Part shown: one piece after another, positions 203 through 9,828 of the stretch
How the letters are laid out: the number at the start of each line of letters is the position of its first letter
How positions within the stretch are numbered: position 1 is the first letter of the stretch
Assembly (NCBI GenBank): GCA_027625225.1
Contig: JAQBWG010000032.1
Span: 1-11,349, forward strand
DNA: 11,349 nt
Direction: 5' to 3'
Source of the DNA: Chloroflexota bacterium
GTDB lineage: Bacteria > Chloroflexota > Dehalococcoidia > Lucifugimonadales > VGZR01
Program-made: the position numbers and the translations under genes
The notes under the pieces: model-generated
What the model was told of the DNA's origin: nothing
Seen by the model: only the letters and a program-made list of their open reading frames with translations
The model's database searches: none

Positions 203-829
203 TTATCGTCCGAATGTAGGAGAGGAGCGTCGGTTGCCTTTGCTTTCAAAGAAGTCCATGTCTATGGCAAAGGCGGCGGCAAGGACGAGCGCCCAGAGCT
301 TGGGGTCGGTGGTGGTGGCTTCGCGCTGAACGTGGAAGGTATCGGCGTCGGTGGCCATTTCACGCAGGACGCCGCTCCATTTTTTGGTGACGCGGGCGAC
401 TTCCCTGTCGTGTTGGCTGACGATGAAGGTGTTGGGCTTCATGAGCGGACCAACGATTTCGGCTATGGGTTTGCCGGAGGGGTCGTGCACGCTGAATTTG
501 CGCTTGAGTATGGCGAAGCGCCGCTGGAGTGAGCCGAGGGGCTGGCCATGTGAGTCGGTGACGTGGAGGTGGGAGAACAGCCAAAAGAAGCCGCGCTTGG
601 CCTGCAACACGGGGGTTTTAGCGTTGTCGATGAAGTGGAAGGTGAGCGGCCGGTGGGTGGCCAGGAATTGGCGGGCGAGCCAGTTGGACTCTTCGTAGGC
701 GTAGAGCACCGGTTCGCCGGAGCCACTGCTGACGGTGTAGCGGTTGGAGGTTTCGAAGCCGGTGAAGACTTCGATGCCTTCTACTTTCTGGCGAACGATG
801 AATTCTTTATGGTCTGCAAGGGTGTCCAT
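203..829 (-). CDS. Phospholipid scramblase (PLSCR, PF03803-like) family protein, 208 aa
   Basis: Translation aligns by eye with human PLSCR1 core motifs: FTGFETSNRY vs LTGFETNNKY, KKWSGVLREMATDADTFHVQ vs KHWTGILREAFTDADNFGIQ, and C-terminal helix AAAFAIDMDFFES vs GACFLIDFMFFES. It lacks the eukaryotic Cys-rich palmitoylation motif and the Pro-rich N-terminus. RBS GGAGGTG lies 5-6 nt before the ATG at 829. Confidence 0.75.
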   Translation of the reverse strand: MDTLADHKEFIVRQKVEGIEVFTGFETSNRYTVSSGSGEPVLYAYEESNWLARQFLATHRPLTFHFIDNAKTPVLQAKRGFFWLFSHLHVTDSHGQPLGSLQRRFAILKRKFSVHDPSGKPIAEIVGPLMKPNTFIVSQHDREVARVTKKWSGVLREMATDADTFHVQREATTTDPKLWALVLAAAFAIDMDFFESKGNRRSSPTFGR

Positions 830-2712: not shown

Positions 2713-3171
2713 CTAGGCAGTAGGAACTGTAAGGTCACCCGACTCGATGAGGTGCTTGACATTGGCAAGCCGTGACTTCTCACGTTTGGAGAAGTCCATC
2801 CGAATCATGGGGTACATGAGCCAGCCCATAATCGGCCTCGAGGTGGCGTGGATGCTCAAAGAGACACTGGTGTCGTCGCCACTGGAGTGAAATGCCCATT
2901 CGGCCTCGCCGCGCATGGCAGATGTAGTGAACTTCACTCCGAACGACTTGTTCGGATCGAGCTGAGTGGTTTCCAAGTCGATTTCGATGGTCGAGCCGGG
3001 CACTTTGAGGACTTCTTTCCATGTGGTACCGACCTTCACTGAGCCGTCGCCCGTATTTGCTATGGATACGACATCGGGGTCAGCCTTGGGAAGCCAAGTC
3101 GCCAAGTCGCTGAGAACAGCAAAGACTTCCTCAGTTGGTTCGTTTATGGTGGCTGTGGCGTTAAAACGCAT
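2713..3171 (-). CDS. SRPBCC superfamily protein (polyketide cyclase/dehydrase-like, Bet v1/START fold), 152 aa
   Basis: N-terminal INEPTEEVFAVLSDLATWLP motif and a long C-terminal helix (GWLMYPMIRMDFSKREKSRLANVKHLIE) are typical of Polyketide_cyc2-type proteins. RBS AAAGGGAG is present. It lies 40 bp downstream of the flotillin gene with no terminator between them, so co-transcription is likely. Confidence 0.65.
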   Translation of the reverse strand: MRFNATATINEPTEEVFAVLSDLATWLPKADPDVVSIANTGDGSVKVGTTWKEVLKVPGSTIEIDLETTQLDPNKSFGVKFTTSAMRGEAEWAFHSSGDDTSVSLSIHATSRPIMGWLMYPMIRMDFSKREKSRLANVKHLIESGDLTVPTA

Positions 3172-3211: not shown

Positions 3212-5140
3212 TTATTCGTCGGTAGATTTACCCTTTTTAGGTTTCCTGGCTCCGTTGCCGCCGTTCTTGTCGGTATTCTCAGGTATGTCAAGCTTAGGCC
3301 CCAGGGTAGTGGCAAGCCAGGCGTTGAACAGGCCACCGCCGGGGCCTCCGTCGCCGCCACCGCTGACCATGACGTCGGGGGTGATTTTAACTTTGCCATC
3401 GGAGACTTCTTCCAACACCTTGAGGATGGCAAGGCGTTCGGGACCGACCACCTTGGCCTGGGCGAGGTAGGCGTCAGCAGTAGCTTCACCGACCTTACGG
3501 ACGGCGTCGGCATCACCGTCGGCGCGGGTTTTGGTGGAGTCGCGTACACCTTCGGCTTCGCGGCGGGCGGACTCGGCACGGTCGGCTGCCATCTCGATGG
3601 ACAGCTTTGCAGCCACGACCTGCACCTGCTGGTCGGCGCGGGCTTTCTGTTCCTGTACGCCGATACGTTCGAGTTCGGCACGGGCTTCTTCTTTGTACTG
3701 AGTCTGCTGCTGGATGGCAATCTCTTTCTTCGTCTGGGTATCGAGCAGCGTCTGGTCAACGGCGATGTAGGCGATGAGGAGGTTTTGGGCCTCGACGAAG
3801 TAGTGGTGGAATTCGTCACGCGCCTTGGAGAGTGCCTGCTGCTGCAACTCGGAGCGTCCCTGCACGAAACCGATAGCCTTTTCCTCTCCCGCACGGTTGC
3901 GGAACGAGGAGTCTACCAGCGGGTGGACGATTTGCTCGATAAGATTTTCAACGGAGCCGAAGCGGGCGATGACGAAGGGTGCGTACTCCGGCCGGATGCG
4001 GATAATCATGCGAACGTCGACGTCGAGGTGGAAGCCGTCCCGGGAGGTTACCCGTAGTTGGGCGAATTTGAAGAACTCGGCGGCTTTTCCTTCCGCGCTG
4101 GGCTCGGGTTCGATAGGCACGGGTGACATGGCATCCATCCGCACCCTGGCGCCAGCCGCCCAGTCAATGGTGACGGCGCTGGTGGGTACGAGATAGGACG
4201 TGTAGGCGATGGGATTGAGGTTGTAGGTACCAGGCGCGACAGGGTCACGAAGGATGCCACGGCGTTCGCGGTCGGTGATGAGCAGCTTTTCGACAGCCTC
4301 ATGGATGGGTTGCCGCAGGTCTTCGGGGGTGTGCGGAATCTCGGGCGGGCCGTCGCTGATGTCAAGTTCCTGGCCGACGTTGGACCGCAGGACGGCGACA
4401 TAGCCGGGAGGAATATCGGTGATGGCGTGCTTTTCGACTTCGAACAACAAGGGGTTGATGTAGTAGTCGCCGGGCTGGATGGTGTCGAGCTGGGGACCAC
4501 GGAAGCCGCCGCTATCGATGAACGCTTGCCCATCCTGGTAAAACTTATGGTGGCGGATGCGGGCGTTAATATCGGTGGGCGCTTCGGGCGGCTTGGGAGC
4601 CACGATGAAGCCGGGGGGCAAGGGAATGCCGTCCATAGCAACGATGACGCCGAGTTTACCCGATTCGATGCTGGTGGCGGCAAACTTTTGCACGCGGAAC
4701 AGCTTGGTGTTGATTCGATAGACACCGGGTCGCAATATTTCGACCTGGGGCCCTTTCTTGCCGCCGTTCTCCAAGAAGGTTTTGCCGTCCTGATAGGAAT
4801 CACAATCCACTAAGTCACCGAGAAGGCGCCTGGTGGGCAGCGGTTCGCCGTCAACCGATTCGATAACGCCCACTTCATCAACACGTATGACCGTAATGGG
4901 CAGGCGTTCAATCTTCCAAAACAACGGGAAGCGCCAGTAGAGGCCGGGCTTCAATGTTTCGGAGAGAATGCCCACTTCCTGGTTGCGGGCGATGATGTGG
5001 CCCTGAGGAAGGGGGGTGGCGAACATTTTGCGGGTGAGAACGCCTACCTGGTCGTCGCGAACGAGCGCAAGGCCCAGGATAAGTATCGCGAGTCCTATGA
5101 CTCCAGCAATAATAGGAAGCACGATTACTAGAGCAATCAT
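3212..5140 (-). CDS. Flotillin-like SPFH/Band-7 protein (YqiK/FloT family) with N-terminal TM anchor, repeated N-terminal modules, Glu/Ala-rich coiled coil and Gly-rich C-tail, 642 aa
   Basis: N-terminal hydrophobic helix (IALVIVLPIIAGVIGLAILILGLALV). SPFH core near aa 350-400. Long EA/Q-rich coiled coil at aa 430-570. C-terminal KVKITPDVMVSGGGDGGPGGG resembles the YqiK Gly-rich tail. RBS GGAGGGG precedes the ATG at 5140. The tandem internal repeats are described in the findings. Confidence 0.8.
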   Translation of the reverse strand: MIALVIVLPIIAGVIGLAILILGLALVRDDQVGVLTRKMFATPLPQGHIIARNQEVGILSETLKPGLYWRFPLFWKIERLPITVIRVDEVGVIESVDGEPLPTRRLLGDLVDCDSYQDGKTFLENGGKKGPQVEILRPGVYRINTKLFRVQKFAATSIESGKLGVIVAMDGIPLPPGFIVAPKPPEAPTDINARIRHHKFYQDGQAFIDSGGFRGPQLDTIQPGDYYINPLLFEVEKHAITDIPPGYVAVLRSNVGQELDISDGPPEIPHTPEDLRQPIHEAVEKLLITDRERRGILRDPVAPGTYNLNPIAYTSYLVPTSAVTIDWAAGARVRMDAMSPVPIEPEPSAEGKAAEFFKFAQLRVTSRDGFHLDVDVRMIIRIRPEYAPFVIARFGSVENLIEQIVHPLVDSSFRNRAGEEKAIGFVQGRSELQQQALSKARDEFHHYFVEAQNLLIAYIAVDQTLLDTQTKKEIAIQQQTQYKEEARAELERIGVQEQKARADQQVQVVAAKLSIEMAADRAESARREAEGVRDSTKTRADGDADAVRKVGEATADAYLAQAKVVGPERLAILKVLEEVSDGKVKITPDVMVSGGGDGGPGGGLFNAWLATTLGPKLDIPENTDKNGGNGARKPKKGKSTDE

Positions 5141-5280
5141 GTATCCCCTCCTCTGTTGTGTTGTATCCGGCTTGCCAGCTGCGCCCAGAGGGTCAGCAAT
5201 TCCAAGTTAACGAAGAGGAACGGCTGTACACGGTGAATACCGGTACGTGATTCGGCGCGCGCTCACCTCAAGATGGCACC

Positions 5281-5309
5281 ATGATAATGATTAAGGAATA
5301 TCATGGCAA
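5281..5309 (-). promoter_or_regulatory. Candidate sigma70-type promoter for the flotillin-SRPBCC operon: -35 TTGCCA (rc of 5304-5309), 17-bp spacer, -10 TATCAT (rc of 5281-5286); overlapped by inverted repeat CCATGATA-N12-TATCATGG (5279-5306)
   Basis: Hexamers and spacing are read directly from the minus strand in an AT-rich island. The implied 5' UTR is about 130 nt. Confidence 0.35.
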
Positions 5310-6289: not shown

Positions 6290-6763
6290 ATGAAAGATAA
6301 CAACACAACAATCAATCAGGAGATGAACGGCGACGAGCTGCTCGCGACGCTGTCGGCGCTGGCAAGCGTGCACAGGCTGCGCATCGTCGCGCTGCTGACG
6401 GCGGGACGCATCCACGTAAGCCAGTTGGCAAGGGAGATGCAGATGAGCCGCCCGCTGGTACACATGCATCTGCAGCGACTTGAGGCTGCGGGGTTGGTGA
6501 AGGGCGAACTGGAGCTGTCCGAGGACGGCAAGGCGATGAAGTACTTCGAGGTGGCTCCCTTCATGTTGTCGGTCAGTCCGGCGAGCATCGTCGAGGCGAT
6601 TCAGACCCTGACGACTGAGTCGGGCGAGACAGGGGACGTAGCCCAGGTGCAACAGCGGGTCGCACAGGAGATGGAGCGGGTGGCGGGCGAGCTTTCACAG
6701 CTTCAGGAGCGGGCGGGCGCGATGAAGCGGATGTTCAAATCCCCGGATTCAAAAAAAGAGTAA
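6290..6763 (+). CDS. ArsR/SmtB-family winged-HTH transcriptional regulator with C-terminal coiled-coil extension, 157 aa (start may instead be the ATG at 6322)
   Basis: LSALASVHRLRIVALLTAGRIHVSQLAREMQMSRPLVHMHLQRLEAAGLV matches the ArsR HTH signature, including the HxHL motif. There are no metal-binding Cys residues. About 60 extra C-terminal residues are heptad-like (AQVQQRVAQEMERVAGELSQLQERAGAMKRMFKS). Confidence 0.7.
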   Translation: MKDNNTTINQEMNGDELLATLSALASVHRLRIVALLTAGRIHVSQLAREMQMSRPLVHMHLQRLEAAGLVKGELELSEDGKAMKYFEVAPFMLSVSPASIVEAIQTLTTESGETGDVAQVQQRVAQEMERVAGELSQLQERAGAMKRMFKSPDSKKE

Positions 6764-6795: not shown

Positions 6796-7068
6796 ATGAA
6801 CAACGATTTTCCATGGCCCCTTGCGGTAATGATTATCTGCACCTCGGCAGCCGTGTTTGCCGCTGGCGCGTTCATCATTTACCAGGCGTTCGCGACATGG
6901 CGGGCGAAGATGTCCATCGCACGCGAGGAAGCGTACAAGCGGTTGGCTGAGCAGTCGATACAGGCGCAGCAGCGCATCTCGCAGGAGATGGAGCTGGTGA
7001 TGACCGAGCTTTCGCAGGTGCAGAAGCAGGCGAGCGAGATGGAGCGGCTATTGAAGTCGGTTGAGTAG
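6796..7068 (+). CDS. Small single-pass membrane protein with cytoplasmic coiled coil, paralogous to the C-terminus of the upstream ArsR-type regulator, 90 aa
   Basis: RBS AGGAGG (6783-6788) lies 7 nt before the ATG. The N-terminal TM helix is PWPLAVMIICTSAAVFAAGAFIIYQAF, followed by basic residues (positive-inside rule). The C-terminus QAQQRISQEMELVMTELSQVQKQASEMERLLKS is about 54% identical to the ArsR tail. Confidence 0.65.
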   Translation: MNNDFPWPLAVMIICTSAAVFAAGAFIIYQAFATWRAKMSIAREEAYKRLAEQSIQAQQRISQEMELVMTELSQVQKQASEMERLLKSVE

Positions 7069-8275: not shown

Positions 8276-8725
8276 CTACTTCACGAAGATGACGCCGAAT
8301 TGGTAGTCGTTCATGGAGCCGTCGGCGTTGCCCATGAAGTTTGATGTTATGTATCCGGACGCTCCCTCGAACTGGCCGGTGCCGCCTTCGACCTTCCAGA
8401 TAATGCAGCCGCCGGTCACGTTGGGTTCGACGGTGCCGCCCATAAAGCCTTCGCCGACGGTGCTGAAATTCAGGGTGTGGCCGGGGCCGAAGCTAATGGT
8501 GCCCCATTCGATGAGGGTGGTGTCGGTGAGGAACTTGGCCTCGGAGTCGAAGACGATCTCGTGTCCCCCGATAGCCTCAAATTTACTTTCCAGACCGTTC
8601 GGCCCGGCTTTGGTGGTGATTGTAGCGCTCGGCGCGGTGGAGTGAGCCTCCCACAGTGTCGGGTCGGCGGGGTTTTGGGGGCCGCCTTTGCCGGTGAATA
8701 CCGCGGTATAGATAAGACGTTGCAT
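8276..8725 (-). CDS. Dirigent/allene-oxide-cyclase barrel-like domain protein, 150 aa (re-called; the track ORF 8276..8884 is over-extended)
   Basis: The internal ATG (rc of 8723-8725) is preceded by GGAGGA with 7-nt spacing. The longer ORF would overlap the ADH gene's 3' end by 139 nt. The motif VEGGTGQFEGASGY matches the conserved GG[ST]GxFxxAxG[YQ] of dirigent proteins and the AOC barrel. Confidence 0.5.
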   Translation of the reverse strand: MQRLIYTAVFTGKGGPQNPADPTLWEAHSTAPSATITTKAGPNGLESKFEAIGGHEIVFDSEAKFLTDTTLIEWGTISFGPGHTLNFSTVGEGFMGGTVEPNVTGGCIIWKVEGGTGQFEGASGYITSNFMGNADGSMNDYQFGVIFVK

Positions 8726-8745
8726 GAGATATTCCTCCAGGGTGT

Positions 8746-9828
8746 TTAGAAGGTGAAAACGGTGCGGATGGCCGTACCCGCATTCATGTCGTCGAAGGCC
8801 TCGTTGAACTCTTCGATGGGACGGACTTTCGTTGCCAGTTCGTCGAGCTTGAGCCGGCCATCCTGGTACAGGTCGAGCATCCACGGGAAGTCGGTTTTGG
8901 GGCGGCCTGCACCGTAGAACGTGCCCATGACGGTGCGGTCCCAGAATAGTTTCATGCCGGGAACGGCGATATCCTGTCCCTTGAACGGCACGCCAACCAT
9001 GACGCAGGTGCCACCGGGACGGATGCAGTCGAACGCCTGACGGACGGTCTGGGGAAACCCGATGACCTCGAAGGCGTAATCGGCGCCGCCGTTGGTCAGA
9101 TCCATGACCCGCTTGACCACATCCTCTTTGGAGGCGTCTATGAAGTGGGTCGCACCAACCGACTCGGCCATATCCAGCTTGAACTGCACTTTGTCCACGG
9201 CGATGATTTTGCCCGCGTTGGCGAGGACGGCACCCTGCACCACGTTCATGCCCACGCCGCCGCAGCCGATGATGACGACGGTGCTGCCCGCCTCCACCTT
9301 GGCACGGTTGAGAACGGCGCCGACACCGGTCATGACACCGCAGCCGATGAGACAGGCCTTTTCGAGAGGAATGTCCTCGCGAATCTTCACAAGGTAGGTC
9401 TCAGGGACAACAGTCTCCTCGGCGAAGGTGGCGAGGTCGGCATAGAGTTCGACTCCATCCTGAGAGAAGGGGCGACGGCCGGTTGGCAGCGTGGCCTTGC
9501 CCAACACCCAGAATTCGCAGAGGTTGGCCTTGCCATCGTGGCAGTTGCGGCAGCGTCCGCACTGGGCAGTGAGCGAGAAGATGACGTGATCGCCGACGGC
9601 TACGGTGGAGACGCCGGGGCCGACTTCCTTCACGATGCCGGAGCCTTCGTGGCCCAGGATGTAAGGTACGGTGCCGAAGTCCACGTGACCGCTGATGCGG
9701 TGGTAGTCGCTGTGACAGGCGCCCGCGCCGACGAGCTGGACGCGAACTTCGCCCTGCTCAGGGCCATCAAGGTCAACCTGCTCTATTTTGACGGGAACTC
9801 CCTGTTCTCGAAGTATGGCTGCCCTCAT
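8746..9828 (-). CDS. Zinc-dependent alcohol dehydrogenase, MDR superfamily, class III-like (FrmA/AdhC-like), 360 aa
   Basis: Catalytic-Zn motif GACHSD...GHEGSG. Structural-Zn Cys cluster CGRCRNCHDGKANLC. Rossmann motif GCGGVG. The C-terminus AIRTVFTF resembles the class III ADH C-terminus. RBS AGGAGA lies upstream of the ATG. Confidence 0.85.
   Translation of the reverse strand: MRAAILREQGVPVKIEQVDLDGPEQGEVRVQLVGAGACHSDYHRISGHVDFGTVPYILGHEGSGIVKEVGPGVSTVAVGDHVIFSLTAQCGRCRNCHDGKANLCEFWVLGKATLPTGRRPFSQDGVELYADLATFAEETVVPETYLVKIREDIPLEKACLIGCGVMTGVGAVLNRAKVEAGSTVVIIGCGGVGMNVVQGAVLANAGKIIAVDKVQFKLDMAESVGATHFIDASKEDVVKRVMDLTNGGADYAFEVIGFPQTVRQAFDCIRPGGTCVMVGVPFKGQDIAVPGMKLFWDRTVMGTFYGAGRPKTDFPWMLDLYQDGRLKLDELATKVRPIEEFNEAFDDMNAGTAIRTVFTF

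Follow-up and report, generated by a model that had tools for sequence, protein, structure and literature searches.

The gene under study lies at positions 3212..5140 on the minus strand, to which all coordinates of its features refer, of contig JAQBWG010000032.1 from a Chloroflexota bacterium, which was analysed as a window of 11,349 nucleotides comprising the whole stretch of DNA. It is a complete coding sequence for a 642-residue protein of the SPFH/Band 7 superfamily, as recognized from the list of open reading frames (ORFs), the Pfam Band_7 profile and the homologues. The order of parts along the chain is an N-terminal transmembrane (TM) helix, repeat units R1, R2, R3 and R4, the last corresponding to the native N-terminal subdomain of SPFH (SPFH1), the SPFH2 core, coiled-coil helices and a Gly-rich tail. 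A Shine-Dalgarno-like GGAGG (5147..5151), found by direct reading of the sequence, is located 6 nucleotides 5' of the ATG at 5140. The scan for promoters and terminators returned a single promoter-like site, at 5281-5309 on the minus strand, that was not above chance expectation. The TM helix (aa 2-23; 5072..5137) was predicted with a local confidence score (predicted local distance difference test, pLDDT) of 80-91 and by hydropathy, the top 19-residue window falling within aa 4-22 with a mean Kyte-Doolittle hydropathy of 3.15, and the helix is conserved among the aligned homologues. The public database copy of the protein (P0001 in ENA, 532 aa) begins at an internal GTG, codon 111 (codons 1-111 occupying 4808-5140), a start that removes the TM helix and the first repeat unit. 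Since the ATG at 5140 is accompanied by GGAGG and the first 110 residues are kept in all homologues, the start of P0001 is mis-called and the longer form from ATG 5140 is the correct one.

The region following the TM helix contains four units. R1 (aa 28-85; 4886..5059; unit hidden Markov model (HMM) E 8.2e-17) is the shortest and carries an aromatic hairpin, PGLYWRFPLFWKI. R2 (aa 86-158; 4667..4885; unit HMM E 3.3e-30; pLDDT about 81-95) carries an inserted loop and short helix of the form FQD..FL..GG.KGPQ, and R3 (aa 159-243; 4412..4666) was recognized by the same tests with a unit HMM E of 1.1e-30. The loop insert, FQD..FL..GG.[KR]GPQ in its general form, is present in R2 and R3, not in R1. 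R4 (aa 244-325; 4166..4411) is degenerate and carries a disordered acidic and Pro-rich loop at aa 254-293. Smith-Waterman scores of segment pairs were judged against 2000 shuffles. Residues 116-200 versus 201-290 scored 143, compared to 25.7 ± 4.8 for the shuffles (z = 24.7), and none of the 2000 shuffles reached this score; likewise none did for aa 30-115 versus 116-200 (z = 11.6) or aa 30-115 versus 201-290 (z = 8.4). A fourth segment, aa 291-350, was weak with z of 1.9-5.4. Profiles of the units, prepared as sub-alignments of 48 homologues cut into units and compared pairwise by hhalign, returned probabilities of 99.4% for R2 and R3 (E 1.4e-21), 96.7% for R1 and R3 (E 3.9e-10) and 95.9% for R1 and R2 (E 5.6e-9). 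R4 compared to R2 and R3 gave 68-70% (E about 4e-5), over the PG.Y.lNP hairpin only. In register, R2 and R3 are 42% identical across 73 columns, and the pattern common to the four units is ..vGVi....G.pLp.g.i....[insert]....G.q...l.PG.Y.iN..lf.v.k...t.I. AlphaFold2 predicted one strand order in all four units, a strand of 7 residues, a loop, and strands of 7, 3, 7 and 3, with a pLDDT of about 85-95 for R1-R3. Plain self-BLASTP of the protein returned the identity match only, the internal repeat being visible with Smith-Waterman and shuffles or with profiles. Tandem Repeats Finder found nothing in the DNA and therefore the duplications are old, visible at the protein level only.

The identity of the repeated unit is indicated by its relation to the Band_7 profile. 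Isolated R1 aligned to profile positions 8-46 (E 0.0057, below threshold), and R1 is the unit nearest to the Band_7 N-terminus. In the whole protein, positions 14-175 of the profile align to aa 294-489; thus R4, identified also by its strand order and hhalign, is the SPFH domain's own N-terminal beta subdomain, and only three units are additional. The unit HMM (73 positions), which picks up three units in the window protein, did not detect R4. An original prediction, made from the sequence of the window, had described about four degenerate tandem copies of the SPFH N-terminal motif inserted before the SPFH core. Its ORF, coordinates and quoted peptides were correct, and its central observation, two related segments of about 60 residues, is borne out by the z of 24.7, the E of 1.4e-21 and the in-register identity given above. 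The count of copies holds for the three that are clearly related (E 1.4e-21 to 5.6e-9) and does not hold for the fourth, which is degenerate and is the native SPFH N-terminus. The equation of the motif with the N-terminal SPFH strand agrees with the alignments of R1 and of R4 plus core to Band_7, and the proposal that a scaffold protein had multiplied its membrane-proximal module holds, since what is repeated is the beta segment at the N-terminal end of SPFH. The checks it proposed, repeat detection and structure prediction, gave significant internal repeats by both the shuffle and profile-profile comparisons and four units with the same predicted strand order. The coiled coil and Gly-rich tail that it described are also present. 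What it missed is that the array is structurally of the type found in the major vault protein (MVP), and that copy number varies between relatives.

The remainder of the chain is that of an SPFH protein. The only Pfam match was Band_7, which scored 77 bits (gathering cutoff 23.6, E 2.4e-21) and had its top stretch at aa 294-489, which places the protein in the SPFH/Band 7 superfamily (PF01145, clan CL0433). The NCBIfam scan assigned the window protein to no family, and searches of PDB sequences with the protein or a 48-sequence family profile returned chance matches only (E 0.26-1.2). R4 is followed by a variable linker predicted with low confidence (aa 326-359; 4064..4165), for which pLDDT is below 50 at aa 333-359 and in which homologues differ in length and sequence, and then by the alpha/beta core (SPFH2, or shoulder, aa 360-461; 3758..4063). 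Long helices totalling about 120 residues, at aa 463-529, 535-565 and 567-580 (3401..3754), assigned by DSSP on the AlphaFold2 model, correspond to the coiled-coil CC1 and CC2 wall and roof helices of SPFH cages, so that, as in the superfamily, long coiled-coil helices come after the SPFH alpha/beta fold. The C-terminal tail (aa 581-642; 3215..3400) is comprised of a GKVKITPD segment (given as K584-D589), a Gly-rich stretch, a short hydrophobic helix LFNAWLATTL and a variable basic end. P588 in the tail is invariant, I586 and A610 are found in at least 90% of homologues, and the model contains a predicted helix at 603-613. About 225 residues of the SPFH and helical parts align structurally to HflC, HflK, QmcA and PHB1, and the C-terminal half of the predicted model can be superimposed on subunits of membrane-bound SPFH cages, the comparison giving 12.6 for PHB1, 12.1 for both HflC and erlin-2, 11.2 for QmcA, 10.5 for HflK and 10.4 for flotillin-1. 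The repeat array of the same model superimposes on the repeat array of MVP. The predicted structure indicates that, in the window protein, an MVP-type repeat array has been joined to a canonical SPFH cage subunit with a TM anchor. This result agrees with the ECOD classification, in which the N-terminal SPFH domain of ordinary archaeal SPFH proteins belongs to the MVP-repeat homology group, and on which the argument was based that, in archaeal proteins, one copy of the MVP-repeat fold comes before SPFH (PMC13607799).

The original prediction labelled the protein Flotillin/YqiK-like, and it could be supposed that the gene encodes an ordinary flotillin/YqiK orthologue with a lineage-specific insertion. 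The order of TM helix, SPFH, coiled coil and Gly-rich tail resembles that of YqiK and several homologues are named 'uncharacterized membrane protein YqiK' by JGI, although JGI calls other homologues 'HflC', which shows the labels to be generic COG names. The Flot domain (PF15975) was not found in the window protein at E≤1, whereas the control, E. coli YqiK, matched it with E 6.4e-41 and has Band_7 at aa 39-192, directly after the TM. The family profile compared with YqiK by hhalign returned a probability of 0.6%. Bacterial flotillins YqiK and FloT are usually in an operon with an NfeD protein. When ORFs of the window and 80 related loci were clustered, no NfeD-type gene (yqiJ or yuaF) neighboured the SPFH gene. 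Unlike the paired hflK-hflC genes, which are linked to FtsH/HflX, the SPFH gene is single, and in the same loci it was adjoined by neither a paralogue nor a protease gene. The results speak against the label, and YqiK orthology is considered very improbable, the architecture being common to two domains of life. The suggestion that the architecture might be lineage-specific is likewise not upheld, since at least 120 homologues cover at least 72% of the query and all 47 of the 47 aligned, bacterial and archaeal, do so end to end.

A total of 1978 homologues at E≤1e-3 was found among 8000 candidates scored. The best 120 of the 1978 are mostly 600-720 aa with a few shorter fragments, are 53-100% identical to the query, and for the most part cover 92-100% of it. 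In a scan of one genome per species with two peptide patterns, which sets a lower bound, at least 173 relatives were found in 185,579 genomes, nearly all of them metagenome-assembled. The closest, with 72-74% identity, belong to Dehalococcoidia/Chloroflexota; others are from Thermoplasmata, Methanomassiliicoccales, Bathyarchaeia, Methanoregula, Methanocellaceae, Zixibacteria, Kiritimatiellia, Thermodesulfobacteriota and Nitrospirota. The family is spread patchily over bacteria and archaea with identity remaining higher than 50%, a combination that suggests horizontal transfer and strong constraint.

Copy number was evaluated with the repeat-region profile, which matched 1722 of 1.84 billion cluster representatives at E≤1e-3, 965 at E≤1e-10 and 269 at E≤1e-30; unexpectedly, the top matches were much longer proteins. 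The unit HMM found 1-14 units in the 150 best representatives, with 3 units in 61 (the mode), 4 in 39 and 5 in 17, and 12-14 units in proteins of 1638-1802 aa. These results indicate that copy number is tunable within the family. The long forms are from the filamentous cyanobacteria Symploca, Okeania, Iningainema and Microseira and add a C-terminal von Willebrand A (VWA) domain or a zinc ribbon, while cultured Geomonas species, among them G. subterranea/oryzae, have a 7-unit form; the annotations of the long and multi-unit forms go no further than SPFH, Band 7 or VWA domain-containing, or hypothetical. P0121, P0122, P0123 and P0125, from cyanobacteria including Symploca and Iningainema, have 9-14 units and, beyond the SPFH and helical portions, a C-terminal VWA domain. 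PARP4, which is associated with vaults, has a VWA domain too, perhaps by coincidence. P0134 (Microseira wollei) has the zinc ribbon at its end. Four multi-unit relatives, P0123, P0127, P0134 and P0141, have no hydrophobic N-terminal helix and begin directly at unit 1, and are candidates for soluble, vault-like forms. Examples of TM-less cyanobacterial forms are Microseira wollei WP_226585611 and Okeania WP_293079066. Some relatives have signal-peptide-like N-termini and extra TM segments.

The likeness of the array to that of MVP raises the question of descent, namely that the family is a true relative of eukaryotic MVP, either its prokaryotic source or a sister lineage, with repeats that are orthologous and not an independent multiplication of SPFH1. 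In the window protein several tandem units with the MVP-repeat fold immediately precede an SPFH shoulder, as expected of the MVP family, and the order of tandem same-fold repeats, SPFH shoulder, long helix and short C-terminal tail is alike. It does not have the soluble, anchor-free form of that family, whose particle is closed and two-halved, the TM helix being present, although TM-less relatives with 6-14 units exist. Prokaryotic MVP homologues with fewer repeats were reported for Asgard archaea (PMC12962969) and some bacteria (PMC3762200). The human MVP sequence used for comparison was checked against the human PDB chain (1983.7 bits over residues 1-893). Profiles of the family, repeat region and units compared with human MVP and an 11-sequence vertebrate MVP alignment gave hhalign probabilities of 1.6% or less, the vertebrate profile being shallow and of limited power. 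The best alignments, all non-significant, fall at equivalent places, the MVP hairpin GPGTYIP against RPGVYRIN and the MVP tail against ...GGLFNAWLAT. In this last region aa 569-611 (about 3308-3434), '...GKVKITPDVMVSGGGDGGPGGGLFNAWLAT', align with the MVP tail at a probability of 1.1%, which is a lead only. Pfam Vault (PF01505, PF17794-6) and MVP_shoulder (PF11978) were not matched by the protein at E≤1 or by the isolated units at E≤10, nor by the nine long, multi-unit relatives scanned, whereas listed MVPs carry these domains. Furthermore, the repeats have kept their likeness to the SPFH N-terminus of the protein itself, in keeping with a duplication history of their own, and the SPFH half is structurally nearer to PHB, HflC and erlin than to the MVP shoulder. 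Common descent with MVP is thus judged improbable.

The barrel wall of MVP is built of repeats stacked end to end. Solved SPFH proteins are rings or cages in which the anchor and SPFH1 form the base, SPFH2 and CC1 the wall, and CC2 and the C-terminus the roof (PMC12624060; PMC13100048). By analogy with both, the reading we favor, with moderate confidence, is that the duplicated-SPFH1 protein forms a half-vault-like SPFH cage on the membrane. SPFH1, the small membrane-side beta subdomain, has been tandemly duplicated in this single-pass membrane protein of the SPFH superfamily, which would assemble into a large homo-oligomeric ring or cage on the membrane as do the structurally solved members. 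R1 would touch the bilayer via the aromatic hairpin PGLYWRFPLFWKI, with R2-R4 stacked end to end above it in the manner of the vault wall, and each stacked unit would lift the SPFH ring and its dome of helices by a few nm, as estimated from knowledge of MVP. The outcome would be a taller, half-vault-like enclosure over a patch of membrane, probably on the cytoplasmic side. In the R1 hairpin W75 is invariant, and 90% or more of the homologues have Y68 and W69; for erlin and prohibitin, membrane contacts were described that involve hydrophobic and aromatic residues of SPFH1 (PMC12624060). Lys and Arg in the flanks of the TM helix average 0.24 on the N-terminal side versus 1.96 on the C-terminal side, and the C-terminal flank is richer in 99 of 118 homologues, which by the positive-inside rule suggests that the bulk of the protein is in the cytoplasm. 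Bacterial and archaeal members are 53-78% identical to each other with strong constraint over the full length, as expected of a protein whose surfaces are mostly interfaces. Several points weigh against the half-vault-like cage. That a cage is formed, and that the units stack as its wall, is drawn from analogy, and the topology from the positive-inside rule. As judged by hhalign the window protein is without sequence similarity to MVP, and no conserved neighbour among the 81 loci offers a clue to function. The monomer model is moderately confident (mean pLDDT 74, predicted template modelling score 0.57), with the R4 loop and the linker at 326-359 disordered.

The inserts of R2 and R3 permit another explanation, the chief rival to the cage, that the extra modules are a spacer or stalk, or modules for binding of a ligand, lipid or partner, rather than a cage wall, perhaps at the outer face of the membrane. 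The SPFH ring would then be set away from the membrane, or clients recruited via the FQD..FL..GG.[KR]GPQ loops. Invariant residues are many in the loop-helix inserts, Q117, L123, G127, G130, P131 and Q132 in R2 and Q202, G204, F207, G212, R214, G215 and Q217 in R3, and could mark a binding site, R1 being without the insert; however, lateral interfaces between subunits would show invariant loops equally, and the conserved loop fits either role. The VWA and zinc-ribbon domains added in cyanobacterial relatives are typical interaction modules, yet MVP, the only solved protein with such an array, uses its repeats as wall. A location at the outer face is in line with the signal-peptide-like N-termini and extra TM segments of some relatives, and is opposed by the positive-inside statistics that favor the cytoplasm and by the TM-less relatives that have no signal peptide. 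A spacer or binding role is therefore considered unlikely, though less so than descent from MVP, and the cage remains the preferred reading.

The SPFH gene is free-standing. Its neighbours in the window encode a Scramblase-family protein, an ABC substrate-binding protein, an SRPBCC protein 40 nucleotides downstream and RsmI upstream. Clustering across the window and the 80 related loci revealed no conserved neighbour, the largest non-target cluster being generic ABC ATPases, whose position varies among 11 loci; the genes directly beside the SPFH gene form clusters of no more than 4 loci, all Bathyarchaeota, and no synteny was found even with the 72-74% identical Chloroflexota loci. A search for defence systems with PADLOC gave one coiled-coil match to ZorD (E 0.0034) that was rejected as spurious, leaving no sign of such a system. 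The protein encoded at 203-829 (minus strand) is a prokaryotic match to the Scramblase family (PF03803, E 1.4e-45) and that at 2713-3171 (minus strand) is of the SRPBCC lipid-binding type; neither gene is a conserved neighbour of the SPFH gene. An ArsR-type helix-turn-helix protein of 157 aa (6290-6763, plus strand) and an adjoining small membrane protein of 90 aa with no Pfam match (6796-7068, plus strand) have in common a 33-residue C-terminal helical segment with 58% identity (E 4e-10), and may be a regulator and its membrane partner. The 202-aa ORF at 8276-8884 (minus strand), also with no Pfam match, overlaps in its 5' part the alcohol dehydrogenase gene at 8746-9828 (minus strand); its true start is probably an internal ATG (MQRLIYTAVF...), giving an uncharacterised protein of about 150 aa.

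The family is uncharacterised and includes bacterial as well as archaeal members; the literature searches found no account of an SPFH family that is TM-anchored, carries multiple repeats and varies in copy number. The architecture is real and conserved, and by analogy the assembly model is plausible. Reviews describe canonical SPFH proteins as having a membrane-binding motif directly before SPFH and forming half cages, and the vault as a free closed particle with 'unique' MVP domains (PMC13100048). The membrane-anchored half cage and the MVP-domain vault are thereby treated as mutually exclusive, whereas the family combines features of both. A broader and more doubtful proposal, offered tentatively, is that the family builds vault-like barrels in bacteria and archaea, as membrane-capped 'half vaults' and possibly free particles, and preserves, in sequences still open to alignment, SPFH1 duplication as the step from which the vault wall originated. 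The TM-anchored four-module form, the seven-module form of Geomonas and the TM-less forms with 6-14 modules of filamentous cyanobacteria would then compose a series. If true, this would provide a directly testable model for the origin of the eukaryotic vault, by descent or by parallel invention. The architecture bears on the evolution of vault-type walls, and supplies sequence-level evidence that repeats of the MVP type can arise by duplication of SPFH1, which complements the fold-level grouping in ECOD (PMC13607799). The range of copy number is a natural series for understanding how height and volume are set in SPFH assemblies, and the cultured Geomonas species are organisms in which a prokaryotic vault-like assembly could be sought. 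The new architectural intermediate is useful for the understanding of SPFH cages and vaults.

With YqiK and FloT the window protein has in common the membrane anchor, SPFH, long Glu/Ala-rich helices and Gly-rich C-terminus, and differs in that the SPFH core begins near aa 294 as opposed to aa 39. Relative to the membrane-bound SPFH cage subunits prohibitin, HflK/C, erlin, QmcA and stomatin, it has three further modules of the SPFH1 type, about 216 aa in all, that separate SPFH1 from the TM helix; it has no sequence match to any solved SPFH chain, and neither an FtsH nor an NfeD partner gene lies near its own. The layout of repeats, shoulder and long helix is that of MVP (PDB 4V60, 9BW5, 3GF5), which has nine modules compared to four. 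MVP is eukaryotic and soluble and dimerises via its N-terminal repeats, whereas the window protein is prokaryotic, has an N-terminal TM anchor and has repeats still like its own Band_7 N-terminus. Bacterial MVP homologues were found via similarity to MVP (PMC3762200; bioRxiv 10.1101/872010), a 'band 7' protein of Herpetosiphon (A9AUD4) threads onto MVP according to Daly et al. 2013 (PMC3762200), further bacterial candidates being H8MNI3, A6FXM1, A1ZGE7, H6L4P8 and I4AHY9, and the homologue from Asgard archaea has five repeats (PMC12962969). These reported prokaryotic homologues (PMC12962969, PMC3762200) likewise have several MVP-type repeats, a shoulder and a helix. The family described here differs from those descriptions in that it was not detected through MVP similarity with the profiles used, is TM-anchored in its common form, and has another taxonomic spread.

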